From Octopus sinensis (taxonomy: Eukaryota), in the NCBI RefSeq assembly GCF_006345805.1, contig NC_043008.1, forward strand, positions 11,222,001 through 11,286,000: 64,000 nucleotides of DNA. Direction: 5' to 3'. The notes beneath the pieces were generated by a model. The model ran no database searches. It was given only the letters and a program-made list of their open reading frames with translations, and was not told where the DNA came from. Shown here piece after piece: positions 27,384 through 56,890 of this stretch; position 1 is the stretch's first letter, and each line of letters begins with the position of its first letter. Made by a program: the position numbers and the translations under genes.

Positions 27384-27590
27384 GTCATGATTGATCGCTA
27401 GCGACTAAACATTTAAAATATTTTCTCTCTCTCTCTGCTTATTTCTGTATTCCTTTCCGTTGAAGAGCGTAGGCTCAAAACGTAAAAGACTTTCCCACTT
27501 CCCGAGCGTTTAACTAATACAATATGTTTGTTGTTTACACACCCGTCTTCGTCTTCTGTTTTTGTTTTTTTTTTAAATTCCAATTACACA
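27384..27590 (+). mobile_element. Short Penelope-pLTR-like element with a degenerate minimal hammerhead motif (27453-27488)
   Basis: CTTT-CCGTTGA-A-GAGC-GTAG-GCTC-AAAA-CGTA-AAAG; same architecture as 47655-47870. Confidence 0.5.
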
Positions 27591-28904: not shown

Positions 28905-29042
28905 TTAAGAGATGAGGAATTATGTAGATTAGGTATACTTTTTACCCGCCTGATATACCCTCCAGCCTTCATCGGCTGTCGTGGTGAAATTTGGAACCCG
29001 TATTCTTATTCCTAAGGTATATTTCGATGTTGTTGTTGCTGT

Positions 29043-30099: not shown

Positions 30100-30690
30100 T
30101 TCTCATGGCATCAACAGCCAAACTAGAAAGGGTATAGCCCCAGAGGATAGCGAAGGTGATGCGCTGGAACAGCCTCTCTGAATCACGGTGAGCAGGGATA
30201 TGGTCCAAGGGCCAAGAAGACAGGATGTCGCAACTGCCACAGGCTCAACTATAAACCTGTCAGAGCGCGACAATGATATGACAGTCTGCTTTTCTGAGTC
30301 TGACGAGCAGCGAAATTTGAGCTGATAACTGCCAATACAAAGATGCTGCTGAGGAAAGTGTCACAGATGAGGAGCCTACCGCCATGGAATGGAAAAATTG
30401 TCATACTATCCGGACTTTTACCGTCCCCTCGATCTAGCAGCTCTGGGTCTATCATGCAGAGAAGCCTGTGGCTTGTAAACCATGCTTTATGATCTTGTTA
30501 AAATGGGTCTGCAGCGGAATTCATGAGGGTCACAGTTCTGGAAACCAAGCCTCATGAAAAAGCCATGCACAAGCAGTTGCTATCAATCTGAGAGACGGTT
30601 GCGAGTGATGGCAGCGCATTGAGCCAAGCTCAGCTAAGAATCTTGAAGGCTGAGTGGAAATTTGCCGGAACGTACTGTCCCATTCCTGCC
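30100..30690 (-). mobile_element. CRE-like non-LTR retrotransposon C-terminal fragment (restriction-like endonuclease region)
   Basis: AWLNALPS, NKIIKHGLQATGF, LDRGDGKSPDSMTIFPFHGG, EPVAVATS, LFQRITFAILWG match the R.DGKRPDG...P+AVET.G...QR+S+A+.RG pattern. Confidence 0.7.
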
Positions 30691-31240
30691 CTTCAGCATC
30701 CTCTAAGCTGACGTCGTGCCTCTGGAGATTTTCCTTAATCGCGCCCATCCATCTGGGGCGTGGCCTGCCATAAGGTCTCTTCCAGTCTGCTGCTTGTTTA
30801 ACGAATGAAAGCAAAATCCTGGTAGGATAACCTGGCGGGAGGTGGAAGACACGTCCGTACCAGCGCATGGGGCGTATAGCAATGAGGTGGGCGTGTGCTG
30901 GCTGATCTATGTTTGCAGACAGTTCTTCGCCGGAAATGTGATAACTCACTGGTTCTCAGGACTCTACTATTGAAGCCATCGATCCTCTTTGCCAAGGTCT
31001 TCGAGGGGTGGGGCTAGATTAATGCTCCATAGAGAAGAACCTTGTAGATGCAAAACTTTGTCTTCTGGGAGATAGAGCCTGGCGCCAAAAGGGCTTCTAT
31101 ATGGAGTACATGACCCCGGCAGCGAGGCCATATCTGCGGTTGATCTCCTGAATCAGGTCCCCAGTGATGGAGCCCACGCGATGAAAGGGCTGAAAAACTC
31201 CCCGACTTTGGGGTCAATTCAGAGTGGTGAACGGTTCGGG
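30690..31240 (-). mobile_element. Degraded RTE-type LINE fragment (different family from 38598-40215)
   Basis: ISQKTKFCIYKVLLYGA, RIDGFNSRVLR, MRWYGRV...WKRPYGRPRPRWMGAIKENL. Confidence 0.75.
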
Positions 31241-31814
31241 CCATAGCTGACGAGCATAAGTTTTGCCTTCGCTCAACTAAATTAAGACTCAATATTTGCT
31301 AATTCATTTTCGGTACTGCCACAATAATGAATAATGAAAAGACTAATAAGGCAAAGGAAGTATCTTGTTCCACTTACATGCATGTTGCGAAGGCTAATTC
31401 GAAGTAACCAATGTTTTCTGAATCGAGTACACTATATTATTGATAATCTACTGTTTGCATTTGGGGAATATATTATTTTAGCCTCTGTGAAACGTTATTA
31501 ATATTTGCTTATATATATTTGGGGTTCTGGCTTTCGGAATCTCCATTGAGATTGGAGGAAAAGCTGAAATTAGATATTAAAAATCGATTTAACTAGATCC
31601 CAATATCTAATTCTTTCAGAATCAGTAGAAATGCATTGTGTTCACCTGGAATCTATTGACGAACAAATAGAAGAATTCTATTCTTAATCACCATCGTAAA
31701 GGTAGAAGTTTCTCTTCTATACTTTGACTAAGGTCGCATTGTGTATTCTCAAACTATATGACTATCAAGTTACTGTATAGAATGTAACAAATTCTATATG
31801 TACATAGAACTTAA

Positions 31815-38597: not shown

Positions 38598-40215
38598 ATT
38601 GGCATCCTTTCTGTCTCGGGAGACAATGGAGTTGCGCATTTAAAAAAAAAAAAATTTTTATAGTCTAGTCCGGCTTTTATATTTCATGTCCTGATACATT
38701 TCCTGCTGTGGCTGTTTAGCCCTATCCTGGACAAACACTCCCTCTCGCAGGTACCGCAAATGTAGTGAAGACTGTTCCTGGCTGGTTGTAGTGCCATAGT
38801 CTCTTGTTTACGTCTCTTCCTTTCTTTCCATTTCTCCTCTCTTTCTCTGTCACTCTTTTGTATTCCCTCTTTTACTGTACGTCGCCATTCTCCACGGTTG
38901 CCGGCAACTGCCTCCGAACCGCTAATATTGATGTTGCAGGCCTTCATATCCCTTTTGCAAACATCCCTGTAACGTAAGATCGGTCTACCCACAGACCTAG
39001 TACCCCTAGCAAGCGCTCCGTAGAGTATGTCCTTGGGGATTCTGCCATCTTTCATACGGCTAACATGCCCAAGCCATCTCATACGTCTTTGGGTGAGGAG
39101 TGCAAACATGCTTGGTATTCCTGCTTGCCTGAGGACATCTTTGTTGGGGATATGATTCTGTCATTTGATGCGGAGGATTTTTCGGAGGCAGCGCAGGTGA
39201 AAGATGTTTAGGCGACGCTCTTGGCGTGTGTATAGCGTCCAGGTCTCGCTTCCATACAGTAGAGTGCTGAGTACACATGCCTGGTAGATCTTCATGTTCG
39301 TGGTCTTGGTCAGCTTATTGTTGTGCCAAGCCCGTTTGGCGAGTTGGGCCATCGCAGCAGCTGCCTTGCCAATGCGTATATTGAGCTCAGTGTCAAGGGA
39401 TAGGTTGTGGGTGACGGTAGAGCCCAGATAGGTAAACTTCTCCACCTCTTGTAATCTGTGGTCTCCAATGTGTATGTTTGGGATGTCCGATGTAGCCTGG
39501 CCCATGATATTGGTCTTCTTAAGGCTAATAGCTAAGCCAAAGTCGTTACATGCTTGCTCAAAACAGTTAATGAGCCTTTGGAGGGCTTCTTCTGTGTGTG
39601 TTACCAGAGCGGCATCATCAGCAAATAACATCTCCTTGATCAGGACTTTTCTGATTTTGGTCTTGGCACGCAGACGCGAGAGATTGAACAGTTTCCCGTC
39701 ACTTCTACTGTGCAGAAGCACTCCATCATCTGATGTCTGAAAGGCATGTGAAAGTAAGAGTGAGAAAAAGATGCCAAACAATGTAGGAGCGAGGACACAG
39801 CCTTGCTTTACTCCGTTTTTTATTTGGAAGGCGGCTGATGTTGAACCGTTGTGCTGTATGGTGCCTTGCATGTCATCATGGAAAGACTTGATGATCCTCA
39901 GCAGCTTTGGTGGACATCCGATTTTTTGGAGCAGGAGGAAGAGGCCTGTTCTGCTTACCGAGTCAAAAGCCTTTGTTAGATCAATGAAGGCTATATATAA
40001 TGGCATATTCTGCTCTCTGGACTTCTCCTGAAGTTGGCGTATGGAGAATATCATATCGATAGTTGATCTGCTTCTTCTAAAGCCACACTGCGATTCCGGA
40101 TAGATTCGAGAAGCAAGTAGTTGTAGCCTGGCCAGGATAACGCGGGCAAAAGTCTTTCCAACAGTGCTTAGAAGGGATATACCACGGTTGTTGTTACAAT
40201 CACCACGGTCACCTG
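38598..40215 (-). mobile_element. 5'-truncated RTE-clade (BovB-like) LINE
   Basis: RT motifs RGISLLS, PESQCGFR, FIDLTKAFD, GVKQGCVLAP, LFADD, YLGS; RTE-type 3' tail CCATTGTCTCCCGAGACAGAAAGGATGCCA. Confidence 0.97.
38684..40213 (-). pseudogene. RTE reverse-transcriptase ORF, N-terminally truncated, with one in-frame TGA (39161-39163)
   Basis: ORFs 39161..40300 and 38684..39109 are in frame (ILRIK*QNHIPNKDVL...MFALL); C-terminal CxxC...HxxxC motif; the first ~29 aa of the listed ORF come from flanking DNA. Confidence 0.92.
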
Positions 40216-41704
40216 GTATATATATATAAACGATTATGACTTGTAAATGACTTTTCTCAAGGAATCGAGTTCTATAAGTGTGAAATAACATACAAAACAT
40301 AGCAAATACATACGACTGAAAAACAAAGCAAATATTATCTTTTAAATGAAGTCACACAAAATAACTGAATTTATATGATATTTAATGTAATATTTAAAAG
40401 GAAGATGAAATCGTTGGAAGACATGGAAATGTTATGATGTTATAAGATTAATTTATACACAAATACATCTCTAAAAGAATATTTCGTGTATTCCCGGGAA
40501 AGAATAGTAAATATTTGAAAGTCAAAGCTTATGTGTAAAAGAAAATGACCGAGTTAAACTATGAGACTTGTATACGAAAAACAAAGAAGAACATCGCTGT
40601 AGAATTCTTCACAGCGATCTATAGATGTCTGATCTTAATTAATTATAAAATGTAAAACAACGCACTTACGGTCTGAAAAATGAAAATTTCGATGATGAAG
40701 AGATCTAGAAATATCAAGAAATAACAAAAAAGTGAAAAACAAAGCGAAAGAAAATAATAGCCGTCCGGCAAATAAACAAATGCTGTAGTTCATGAATATT
40801 TTCCATCATAATTTCTAATACAGTCAAAGGTCAATAGTGTAAACCGCTGATAGCTATTTAATCTCGCACAGTGTGATGTAAAGTTGAGTTAAACCAGGTG
40901 GAGTTTGAACAAAATAGAACTGTGTGTATTATAAAAATGAATTCACTGTATATGTTCTTCTTCTAAAAGTTGGTAAACGTGATTTCCTCTGTTGTGATTC
41001 GAATTGTTTTAAGCATAGAATTCAAATACTATTTACCGAATAATTGAAGAAGGATGTAGGTGTTAATTTTCTCAGCTATTCGTAAACAGCTAGCGAGATA
41101 ATATTAGAATCTACAAATGTTAATGAAAATATGAACCGAATAATAGAGGGTCTGATAAAATGTACTTCAAGAATGCTTTAGAATTGGTATACACCAGGCT
41201 GAATTATATGTACAGCTCACAATGGCGGAGAAAACGATGAAGATTCTGTTATTTGACAAATACATTATCGTGCTGGCTGAGGAGAATGAATACTTCGCTA
41301 ATTAATGAACACAAATATCCATAAATTAACTCAATGCATTTTATTCCACAGTCTAATCATTTACTCATTCCATCAGTAATGTAAATCCTATGTCGGCCAA
41401 CTCCCTATATACGTGTATATGCATATCCATATGTATTTGTATATACATAATATACGTATATACATAATATACCTATAGCTCAGCAGTCATAAGATTGCTT
41501 GCTAATGAGTGATAGCCACCAGAGCTATATAAAACTAGGAACAACCAAGCAATTGACGTAACAACTGGCTTATCTCCAATGCATGCAATTGGTGGTAGCT
41601 TGTAATTGTATACTGTCTACATTAAATAATATAATTATATATATATGTGTGTGTGCGTGTGTGCGTGTATGTGCGCGTATGTACGTGTGAGTGTGTGTGT
41701 GTGA

Positions 41705-44434: not shown

Positions 44435-44718
44435 TCTTCTCCTCCTCCTCCTCCTCCTTCTCTTCCTCCTCCTTCCATTCTACCTCCTCCACCCCTCCTC
44501 CTCCTCCTCCTCCTCATCATCATCATCACATCGTCACCATCGTCGTCTTTGTCGTCAGATTCATCATCACCATCACAAAGAACACCACCACCCTCACCAC
44601 TACCATCATCACCACAACCAGCACCACCACCACCGACTCCAGCATCACAAGCTCCATCAGCAGCAGCAGCAGCTTAACCACCACCACCATCATCAACATT
44701 ATCAACGTCATCATCATT

Positions 44719-44761
<43 letters not shown>

Positions 44762-45190
44762 CCACCACAACCACCACTACTACCATCATCATCATTATTA
44801 TCATCACCACCACCACCACTACCATCATCAACGTTATCCTCATCAGCATCATCATCATCATCATCATCACCACCACCACCACCATCATCATCAACATTAT
44901 AATCACCATCAACATCATCACCACCACAACCACCACTACCACCATCATCATCACCACCACCACCACTACCATCATCAACATTATCCTCATCACCATCAAC
45001 ACCATCATCGCTACCACCATCATCATCACCACCACCACCACTACCATCATCAACATTATCCTCATCAGCATCAGCATCATCATCATCATCACCACCATCA
45101 TCAGCATCATCATCATCATCATCATCATCCTCACCACCACCACCACCACCAACAACAACAATAACAACAACACCATCACCATCATAACAA
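44435..45190. repeat. Degenerate trinucleotide array (CCT, then CAT/CAC/CAA)
   Basis: Direct inspection. Confidence 0.95.
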
Positions 45191-45551
45191 TCGGATGAGA
45201 TAAAATTGGTGAAATCGTTCTTCTTGCCAACAATAAATGTGAATCGCAATGAAACTCCTTCTCGTCGGAAGAATTGAATGACATAATGTTGACAGACGTT
45301 AAACGAATTGGTTAATATTATTGCATAACTAATTGTGGGTGTCGCTTATTATACAAATATTGATATTGAAATTCCTTCATTATCTCTTCATTTGTTTATC
45401 AATATAAACCATCGTCAAACACTTATAGGAAGAGAGAGAAATCGACAGCTATCGAATTATCCGATATATATAGAAGTGTGTGTGTGTGTTCCTGTGCGTG
45501 TGTGCATGTGAGGGTGTACATATATATGTATGTGTATACACACACACACAA

Positions 45552-45594
<43 letters not shown>

Positions 45595-45785
45595 CGTATA
45601 TATACGCATACATACACTTGGAAATTGATGCGTGTTGTTCAATCATATAATTACTAATATGTATATATATATCTATACATATATGTACATATATTTATAT
45701 ATATGCATATATATATATGTATATATATAGATGTATATATATTTATCTATGCATATATATGCATATATATATATGTATATATATA

Positions 45786-45816
<31 letters not shown>

Positions 45817-45818
45817 GT

Positions 45819-46021
45819 AGGTCCCGGGTTGATTCGGGGTTAACCACAGTAAATAAGGTACTCAATACATAGTAGAGTAAAATTAATTTATTATATAGAA
45901 GGAGCTTCTACAGGACTAGAACTGTTTCATTCAAGAGAAATCTTCAGGAAGCTTCCTGAAGATTTCTCTTGAATGAAACAGTTCTAGTCCTGTAGAAGCT
46001 CCTTCTATATAATAAATTAAT
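45819..46021. mobile_element. Short Penelope-like insertion containing a 140-bp perfect palindrome (45882-46021)
   Basis: 70-bp arms, no spacer, centre AAG|CTT; unpaired extension 45819-45881; embedded in (TA)n. Confidence 0.75.
45950..46000 (+). ncRNA. Type I hammerhead ribozyme motif (mirror copy on the minus strand, 45903-45953)
   Basis: AGCTTC-CTGAAGA-TTTC/TCTT/GAAT-GAAA-CAG/TTCTAGTC/CTG-TA^-GAAGCT: 6-bp stem I, intact core, 4-bp stem III, GUA site; first stem II pair is U-U. Confidence 0.75.
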
Positions 46022-46119
46022 ATATATATATATATATATATGCATATATATATATAGAAAGATACATATATACGAGTATATATATTATATGTGTTTATAT
46101 GTATATATATGTATATATA

Positions 46120-46168
<49 letters not shown>

Positions 46169-46177
46169 ATATATATA

Positions 46178-46245
<68 letters not shown>

Positions 46246-46523
46246 CCTGTGCGTGTGTGCATGTGAGGTGTACATATATATGTATGTGTATACACACACA
46301 CACAAATACATACATATATATATATATATATCTATATATATATATATCTATACATATATGTACATATATTTATATATATGCATATATATATATGTGTGTG
46401 TATACACACACACACATACATAAATACATAACGGCGCACACACATACATAAAAAGATACGTACATATATATCATCCACGTGCATATATATCATACAATGG
46501 AGAAGATGAGTAATGAATTTGTT

Positions 46524-46642
46524 CTAATTACAATCGTTTCGGTAACACTCCGTCTCTCATGCCACTGCACATAAATGATTTTATGTGAAAAGTGAAGTAA
46601 CATTTGCAGTTGATTACATCGGAGCGGCACTTCATCAGACTG
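46524..46642 (-). ncRNA. Candidate type I hammerhead with a long stem II insertion
   Basis: CAGT-CTGATGA-AGTGCCGCTCCG...CGGAGTGTTACC-GAAA-C/GATT/G-TA^-ATT; 10 of 12 basal stem II positions pair; stem I weak. Confidence 0.55.
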
Positions 46643-47096
46643 ACGTCAAGACGGGCTCTCTCTCTACATTCTCTAAGAACAAAATAAAATATGCATGAGG
46701 GAAAGTAATTTTCCTTTGCTGAATTATATTAATTGCTACTCTACGGAATTATTTACACATCAATTTTACCGATGATGATGTACCGAAAATTTTCTGTAGT
46801 AGCAAAATTTGTAATTTCATCAAATTTCCCATAGCAAAATGTCGATAGGCACCATGTCGAAAGCAACGGTACACTGGGAAACCACACACACACACAGACA
46901 CACATACACACAGACACACACAGAGGCATACACACACGCACACACAAACACGTGCACATACACATACACGCACGCTCACACACGCACAAACACACATACG
47001 CGCACACACACACACATATATATACACACATACACGCGAACACATACATATTTACATACATATTGTATATACGCACTTTCAATTTTATAAATGTTG

Positions 47097-47137
<41 letters not shown>

Positions 47138-47654
47138 ATATAGACATATATATATACATACATACATTCATTCATATATATATATGTGTGTGTGTGTGTG
47201 TGTCTTCACGCATTTGTTCATTTTAGTAAAACTGTAACCGTGTTCTTTATGGTAGATACTACTGTATGTTTCCATGGTTTGCGCAAACTTTACAAAATAA
47301 ATTTGAAACATGTTTTCGATATGCTAATAATTTGTCGTATAATATACATTCTTTATAGAATTGGTTTTACATCAGTCATGCTTTGCTGGCCATCTTTTCG
47401 TATGTCCTCCAGTTTTTAAAAGATTTTTGTTGCACACGAATAATATATGGATATCTATTGTTGAATCTTATAACATGTGCATAACATATTAAGAGAAAGT
47501 CGAATTATTGTACACAGTTACGATGATGTATGCTGTATGTACGTGAGGAGATGGGTGTCTATATGTACGTATCTACATAGCTATTAGTAAAGATGTATGT
47601 ATGTATGTATGCTATGTACGCATGCTATGTATGTATGTGCATATATATATATAG

Positions 47655-47870
47655 TTAATCCACACAAGAAAACACAAAGAGAAAACACAACAACGCGAGG
47701 ACGTGGAACAAGTAGAGTGTTATTGGACGCCCAGGAAAGGAGAGAAAGGAGGAGAATTTAACGTTTCGAGCGGAGCTCTTCGTCAGAAACATAGAAAAAA
47801 GGAAACATCCAAGGAAGGAAAGACGGAGGAAAAAAATCGCCAACGGTACACGCGCGGTCACATTATATAT
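47655..47870 (-). mobile_element. Short Penelope-pLTR-like element with a minimal hammerhead (47756-47790)
   Basis: GTTT-CTGACGA-A-GAGC/TCC/GCTC-GAAA-CGTT^-AAAT; flanked on both sides by (TA)n. Confidence 0.65.
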
Positions 47871-47884
47871 ATATATAAGCAACA

Positions 47885-48210
47885 ATAAGAGATTTATTGT
47901 TGATTGTTTACACGTTTTCGAAATTAGTGGCTTTTCGTCACTGGAAAAAGGATATGTATTTGCAAGGGGAACCCACTTTTCATCGACAATCGGTGATTGT
48001 CACACACTGATGATGGGTCAATACCCAGAAACTCGAATCCGTGTGTATCATAAAAGTTGAAGATGGGAAGGATGGCTTCTTTTTGCAAATACTGAAATGG
48101 CACAGAAAGTGTGCCAATAGCCAGCTGGAGGATGTGTCCTCTTGGGGCTACAAGCTATAGTAGCATCCACCCTTAAGGACTAGCCACATTTAAGTGACAA
48201 ATATACTTCA
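47885..48210 (+). mobile_element. Short Penelope-pLTR-like element with a hammerhead motif (48001-48045)
   Basis: CACAC-A-CTGATGA-TGGGT/CAAT/ACCCA-GAAA-C-TCGA-A-TC^-C-GTGTG. Confidence 0.65.
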
Positions 48211-48221
48211 CGATATATATA

Positions 48222-55944: not shown

Positions 55945-56890
<946 letters not shown>

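Follow-up and report, generated by a model that had tools for sequence, protein, structure and literature searches.

Hammerhead motifs clustered beside TA microsatellites in Octopus sinensis: probable independent insertions of Penelope-type elements

EN+ Penelope-like elements (PLEs) with minimal hammerheads in their pseudo-LTRs (pLTRs) are described as encoding RT with a C-terminal GIY-YIG, as forming partial tandems and inverted 5'-truncated copies, and as persisting mostly as solo truncated copies, with microsatellite targets and an optional 3' tail (PMC4209133; PMC8557442). Their hammerheads have a short stem I, an extra nucleotide after A9 and a palindromic stem III (PMC4209133; PMC8557442), and a bulge or mismatch at the stem II base together with a dimer-type stem III has been described (PMC4209133). 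The octopus elements presented here are alike in these respects. They differ in that their families are new, in that long microsatellite-like UTRs lie between ORF and pLTR (2.7 kb in the family called A below, ~1.5 kb in C), and in that the A hammerhead has a monomer-capable 4-bp stem III and a U.U at the stem II base. A U.U at this position is reported in an axolotl retrozyme (PMC7229834), and rotifer PLEs are known to have long spacers ahead of the pLTR (PMC3846280). In vitro, minimal PLE hammerheads show no activity as monomers and low activity as dimers (PMC4209133).

Two other systems are close. The non-LTR retrozymes of mussels are made of 350-390-bp repeats (PMC7229834; 10.64898/2026.07.22.740005), with one type I hammerhead per unit, and are found as monomers to trimers (PMC7229834). 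A preprint proposes from similarity and trees, mainly in Xenopus, that retrozymes arise from pLTRs, and reports cleavage in 1 of 9 dimers tested (10.64898/2026.07.22.740005). In the Anolis Poseidon element PAc, reverse transcription starts at fixed internal sites, the target is AT-rich, unprocessed RNA is inserted, and the hammerhead overlaps the start codon (PMC11167929). The literature already covers hammerheads in PLEs, solo truncated copies, inversions and tails, a bias to microsatellites, and non-autonomous derivatives arranged head to tail (PMC4209133; PMC8557442; PMC7229834). An octopus repeat annotation reports Penelope-like families, and the word "ribozyme" does not occur in its available text (PMC13282606). 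Our literature search, whose scope left aside Repbase, most subscription papers and the supplements of PMC4209133 and PMC8557442, listed no paper devoted to cephalopod hammerheads, to a fold-back hotspot within a PLE hammerhead or to a PLE family with A6U in its core; those supplements may contain families of this sort.

The window analysed here is a 64,000-nucleotide stretch of Octopus sinensis DNA, AT-rich and full of microsatellites, from a genome of 2.72 Gb. Elsewhere it holds a broken LINE-type RT remnant (38684-40351, minus strand; Pfam RVT_1, E 3e-33), a similar LINE tail seen by eye near 30530-31300, and long CAT/CAC and ATA trinucleotide arrays (44439-45184 and 55962-56667). A sequence-only reading had reported four type I hammerhead motifs in it, carried by non-autonomous mini-elements without ORF, in or next to (TA)n and of Penelope pLTR or retrozyme origin. 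All four motifs, A, B, C and D, are present, and genome searches place them in four separate multi-copy repeat families adjoining TA microsatellites. Their orientations in the cluster are mixed and their identities to relatives differ (100% for A, ~93% for C, ~90% for D and ~76% for B). We consider it highly probable that the four copies are independent Penelope-type insertions, A and C being truncated PLE ends, D a tandem unit moved by PLEs, and B an old fragment that is likely of the same kind. In what follows, "candidates" are counts from first-look searches, not copy numbers, and 40 matches were scored per DNA search. Element A comprises the following features:

45813..45953, minus strand: A sense arm, the final ~140 nt of a pLTR that belongs to a young RT/GIY-YIG PLE, ending in (TA)n; 99.3% identical to the parent L154
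45950..46021, plus strand: A inverted 5' fold-back arm, forming with the sense arm a perfect palindrome (45882-46021) with 70-bp arms
45950..46000, plus strand, mirrored on the minus strand: hammerhead A, with a 6-bp stem I, a U.U and 3-bp stem II, a 4-bp stem III and a GUA triplet
45956-45962, plus strand: A core, cleavage nucleotide 45994
45947-45941, minus strand: A mirror core, cleavage nucleotide 45909
45552..46430, no strand: microsatellite tracts of (TA)n/(TG)n on both sides of A

The motif seen on both strands is one element (45813-46021 overall), because window A is a single perfect palindrome. Inverted PLE junctions with palindromes are known and have been ascribed to self-priming (PMC3846280). 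RNA folding prediction puts the cost of the hammerhead fold at 76 kcal/mol in window A versus 4.9 in an uninverted copy, where this fold is still disfavoured (probability 3e-4), and the window hammerhead is predicted to be sequestered in the palindrome hairpin. Two blocks, one of ~150 nt (89% identical) and one of ~70 nt (94% identical), are repeated on either side of A (45466-45730 and 46218-46404), possibly by a local duplication around the target.

All 40 scored matches of A (290 candidates) are identical to it over 132 nt. Among 30 loci, 29 end in TA runs that follow the 3' end, which bears out the proposed position in or next to (TA)n, 17 have an inverted 5' arm and 5 the exact window junction; the tracts at 45552..46430 are likely the insertion target. 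One locus continues into a protein start, and a search with it gave pLTR-ORF junctions and long copies, in which the pLTR is followed by a single ORF of ~710 aa with RT motifs, a cysteine linker and, C-terminally, a GIY-YIG motif, read by eye. The hammerhead lies in the pLTR, ~160 nt upstream of the ATG, whereas that of PAc overlaps the start codon (PMC11167929). In tandem long copies, of partial pLTR-ORF-pLTR form, the hammerheads are 5019 and 5388 nt apart, for an element of ~5 kb; inverted 5'-truncated copies are also found. Each of the four long copies fetched (L151-L154) has frame breaks, and an uninterrupted full-length ORF was seen in 0/4. A search with the RT part gave, at E<=1e-20 and among 8000 scored, 1619 relatives; most of the 120 listed measure ~700 aa. 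Pfam called no RT in the A ORF, and its GIY-YIG match, below cut-off, fell on another PLE protein; the domain calls for A rest on the motifs read by eye and on the relatives. Sequencing runs queried with the A pLTR-ORF junction gave no RNA run among those listed, a result that does not bear on expression. By their linker motifs, A may belong to clade Nematis and C, presented below, to clade Neptune. Window A is the end of a long, young PLE, truncated on its 5' side and folded back on itself.

The breakpoints of A were studied in 30 copies picked on their 3' 82 nt alone; upstream of this query, the cleavage site lies at 8 nt and the stem I start at 53 nt. One copy stops short of the cleavage site, none at it, 15 at 9-56 nt (14 with a fold-back), one at 57-200 nt and 13 beyond 200 nt, of which 9 at 1200 nt or more. 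The binomial p for stops inside the hammerhead is 1e-8, with an interval chosen post hoc and a crude uniform null. The absence of stops at the cleavage site indicates that RT reads through it, in agreement with the in vitro finding that unprocessed RNA is the PLE substrate (PMC11167929); PAc and A are thus alike in insertion of unprocessed RNA, as well as in fixed internal RT starts and an AT-rich target. Unlike A, PAc comes with no mention of a fold-back hotspot inside the hammerhead in the available text (PMC11167929). This clustering of stops within the ribozyme, for which RNA structure or short palindromes may be responsible, accounts for the abundance of short pieces with a hammerhead.

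Element C has the following features:

47654..47864, minus strand: element C, the pLTR of an older PLE, whose minimal hammerhead, of dimer type, has a bulged A, a stem II of 4 bp and no stem III within the molecule; 91-94% identical to the best copies
47786-47780, minus strand: C core, cleavage nucleotide 47760

The genome search with C gave 1411 candidates. Many copies begin at one point adjoining (TA)n, which mimics a fixed 5' end. Such an end was ruled out by longer copies that cross it: in 6/30 loci from a 5'-end search, the shared sequence runs on upstream for more than 140 nt, reaching ~1 kb at most. When the CA-rich upstream stretch served as query, 18 of 20 loci had the C pLTR downstream and 8 had PLE ORF matches upstream (tblastn; fragments only), in which RT, linker and GIY-YIG motifs are visible. 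The layout is ORF fragments, then a CA-rich UTR of ~1.5 kb, then the pLTR. C is the end of an older PLE whose ORF lies ~1.5 kb upstream in longer copies. The window copy keeps an intact core, and its hammerhead is predicted to need a partner, as a dimer, to cleave.

Element D is of another type:

47888..48214, plus strand: element D, near-monomer of a non-coding unit of ~357 nt that is repeated head to tail, resembling a non-LTR retrozyme; 83-84% identical to each unit of a trimer
47993..48050, plus strand: hammerhead D, which has lost the first stem I pair and the outer stem III pair, both beside the cleavage site (alignment of 72 copies)
48007-48013, plus strand: D core, cleavage nucleotide 48039

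Its search gave 2609 candidates at ~90% identity. In long copies, the upstream sequence equals the downstream sequence, and a junction search found dimers at 354 and 357 nt spacing and a trimer whose cores are spaced by 359 nt. In 60 loci, no colinear ORF turned up, and two weak protein matches lie on the opposite strand. Inversions of PLE type occur in 9/30 loci, and there are two 3' ends ~44 nt apart. By its sequence, D fits a non-LTR retrozyme, being a head-to-tail repeat within 150-450 nt, at 43% GC (below 45%), with one type I hammerhead per unit and no ORF. It resembles the mussel retrozymes in unit length, non-coding head-to-tail organization, number of hammerheads and occurrence as monomers to trimers (PMC7229834; 10.64898/2026.07.22.740005). 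It differs from them in being mostly dispersed, with PLE-type inversions and a tail.

Element B is old, judging by identity:

46490..46665, minus strand: element B, a PLE-like terminal fragment of old age, whose hammerhead has a palindromic stem III and a stem II of 10 bp around an insert of ~70 nt; 70-83% identical to other copies
46638-46632, minus strand: B core, cleavage nucleotide 46529

Two genome searches gave 40 and 150 candidates, at 70-83% identity. Inversions are found in 7/30 loci, and there is a second, longer 3' form. In 85 overlapping loci of this old family, which reach only 1.5 kb, no colinear RT/GIY-YIG ORF was seen, and searches via the best copy and the long tail found neither an ORF nor a head-to-tail junction. 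B is likely an old fragment of the PLE kind. The long 3' form (L288, L300 and other B loci) ends in a motif like the A 3' end; this likeness hints at a related RT start signal. A PLE family found in L024 was ruled out as parent of B, C or D: it carries a pLTR of its own, and L164 holds its C-like and D copies as separate insertions. Another observation concerns L164-L181, an abundant PLE family (150 scored matches) whose pLTR, ~1.1 kb after the ORF, appears by eye to carry the U3-A8 hammerhead core variant.

That all four would be dedicated non-autonomous mini-elements, retrozymes or SINE-like, with short masters of their own, is improbable. D does fit this explanation by its dimers and trimer, many C copies share a 5' start beside (TA)n, and A has itself given short tandem arrays, so that short masters can exist. 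However, A copies extend at least 1200 nt upstream in 9/30 cases and join an ORF, and the apparent 5' end of C is crossed by copies that reach one; as a general statement it is refuted for A and C. Among A, C and D, "non-autonomous" fits D only, with its head-to-tail multimers and no colinear ORF, and B may be of either kind; "no ORF" is borne out within the window (tblastn), whereas the parents of A and C do carry ORFs. The expected match to Penelope ends was found for A and C, whose pLTRs are linked to PLE ORFs in longer copies, and D is retrozyme-like, in line with the origin first proposed. Neither A nor C is a short unit without coding parent, since both have long ORF-bearing forms; within A, only two arrays fit such a description. 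The first (L157, G000:C16:42873500-42878000) has 8 forward units of ~245 nt, the second (L158, G000:C9:87418500-87423500) 4 forward units of ~423 nt, each with further inverted units. In their units, which carry one hammerhead each and are 95-98% identical to parent A, the ORF start is joined to the pLTR at a junction that differs between the arrays. They are two independent tandem arrays born by deletion from the young family A, and they match the sequence definition of non-LTR retrozymes. Compared with the preprint (10.64898/2026.07.22.740005), two arrays very close to a young parent are available here, with the deletion junctions visible.

We also asked how the motifs stand against background. 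The comparison proposed with the first reading, Hammerhead_1/Infernal and descriptors against shuffles, gave a split result. Rfam gave 0 matches in the window at gathering score and no hammerhead among 136 weak matches (its microRNA matches were rejected as hairpin and microsatellite artefacts). A strict descriptor matched none of the four motifs, and 2 other window sites, within the shuffle range, because each motif has a bulge or mismatch at the stem II base or a dimer-type stem III. On the other hand, a relaxed descriptor permitting both, composed after the motifs were known, gave 4 matches in the window (A twice, C and D), every one inside the cluster region; 60 shuffles of the window gave a mean of 0.02, and 500 shuffles of the region gave 0. 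A single stem II mismatch keeps B from matching. Applied to 307 kb flanking other copies, the relaxed descriptor gave 12 matches versus 0 in 5 shuffles; with 4 matches within A inserts and 1 duplicate removed, 7 are left, or ~1.5 per 64 kb.

The family alignments agree. No family is single-copy, and the majority letters of each restore the core and give CUGANGA...GAAA...UH, with stems I, II and III in type I order. All 11 core positions are intact in 66/74 A, 16/44 B, 51/85 C and 49/72 D copies. The dimer-type or palindromic stem III described at the outset is borne out for B, C and D. The stem covariation hoped for is weak or absent within families, except at one D stem III pair (T-A 45, T.G 14, C-G 11; paired in 70/71), where the copies are related and the p-value overstates independence. 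The two further degenerate motifs reported at 27453 and 28948 are real copies of two other families, with damaged cores:

27385-27580, plus strand: family E site, core 27457-27463, a real family copy with damaged core
28905-29030, minus strand: family F minimal hammerhead, core 28975-28969; 9 copies in fetched loci, GAAA arm destroyed in the window copy

Family E (2597 candidates) has U for A at core position 6 in 29/30 fetched copies (L324-L353), with position 7 variable; the sample was picked by likeness to the window copy, and chance copies in other flanks agree on A6U. The window E copy also carries U4C and G12A. A6 changes are reported to lower hammerhead activity (PMC3088659).

A selected host element, in which ribozymes or hairpin regulate a host transcript, is very unlikely. 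Three descriptor-passing elements in 2.1 kb, against ~1.5 per 64 kb in the flanks of other copies, make a high local density, the C core is intact, and A, if transcribed, would give 70-bp double-stranded RNA. Against this, a by-hand estimate from the flank density, rough and drawn from flanks biased to TA-rich sites, puts the clusters of three elements that chance would give in the tens per genome. The elements also differ in orientation and in age, decay in B and D is of the ordinary sort, and A is, by prediction, sequestered. Of the 160 window ORFs of at least 58 aa, 150 were scanned with Pfam; they gave a LINE-type RT only and no host exon, although short exons would be missed in such a scan. 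The window copies are predicted to be poor cutters, because the palindrome locks A, D lacks the two pairs next to the cleavage site, and neither B nor C can do without a partner in a dimer. Efficient cleavage of host pre-mRNA, which the sequence-only reading had envisaged for an intronic location, is unlikely even there, given the A fold cost and the D pair losses. Chance matches in AT-rich DNA, for which speak the Rfam result, the strict descriptor and the post hoc nature of the relaxed one, are hardly credible and are refuted by both sets of shuffles, by the family majorities, by the long A copies with ORF and by a pLTR position that matches known PLE hammerheads.

The independent Penelope-type insertions that we favour combine observed features, i.e., family membership, the parent ORFs of A and C, the D tandem unit, the inversions and the TA flanks, with steps that follow known PLE biochemistry. 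The four copies would have been inserted independently by Penelope-type target-primed reverse transcription: the endonuclease would nick AT-rich DNA, RT would begin at a fixed internal position immediately 3' of the pLTR, and it would usually halt early or turn back along the cDNA it has made. With the hammerhead 90-150 nt away from the RT start, short copies retain it and look like ribozyme mini-elements. D, a short non-coding tandem unit, would likely be mobilised by PLEs. The ribozymes would matter in tandem transcripts of master copies, and the window copies are likely inert relics.

In conclusion, the cluster is known biology in new families, and in itself the expected debris of a known retrotransposon class. 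The useful part is the young family A, with many identical copies and a near-intact ORF, which can serve for PLE questions: the role of the hammerhead, the origin of inverted 5' ends, and whether retrozymes arise directly from PLE deletions or not. Family E, for its part, lends itself as a natural experiment on the need for cleavage in amplification. More tentatively, and with less than even confidence, the PLE hammerhead may act as a stall and fold-back landmark for RT more than as a cutter, A may have given birth twice to retrozyme-like arrays, and its UTR may seed TA targets. The landmark part is suggested by half of the young A insertions ending inside the hammerhead and none at the cleavage site, and by the spread of a large family with an A6U core. 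As to the UTRs, that of A (L154:3880-6590) consists for 64% of alternating purine-pyrimidine runs, TA/TG-like, and is 95% identical over 1.2 kb between two unrelated loci; that of C (L257:1150-2780) has 53-58% of such runs and 79% identity between two loci. An attempt to assign the window TA/CA tracts to such UTRs did not succeed, the matches being only low-complexity (74-80%). Since these microsatellite-like UTRs are common to separate loci, part of the microsatellite-like DNA of the genome is carried by PLEs. If the tentative reading is true, the kilobase microsatellite-like A UTR would seed TA targets, and PLEs would help to build the microsatellite-rich genome that they target.
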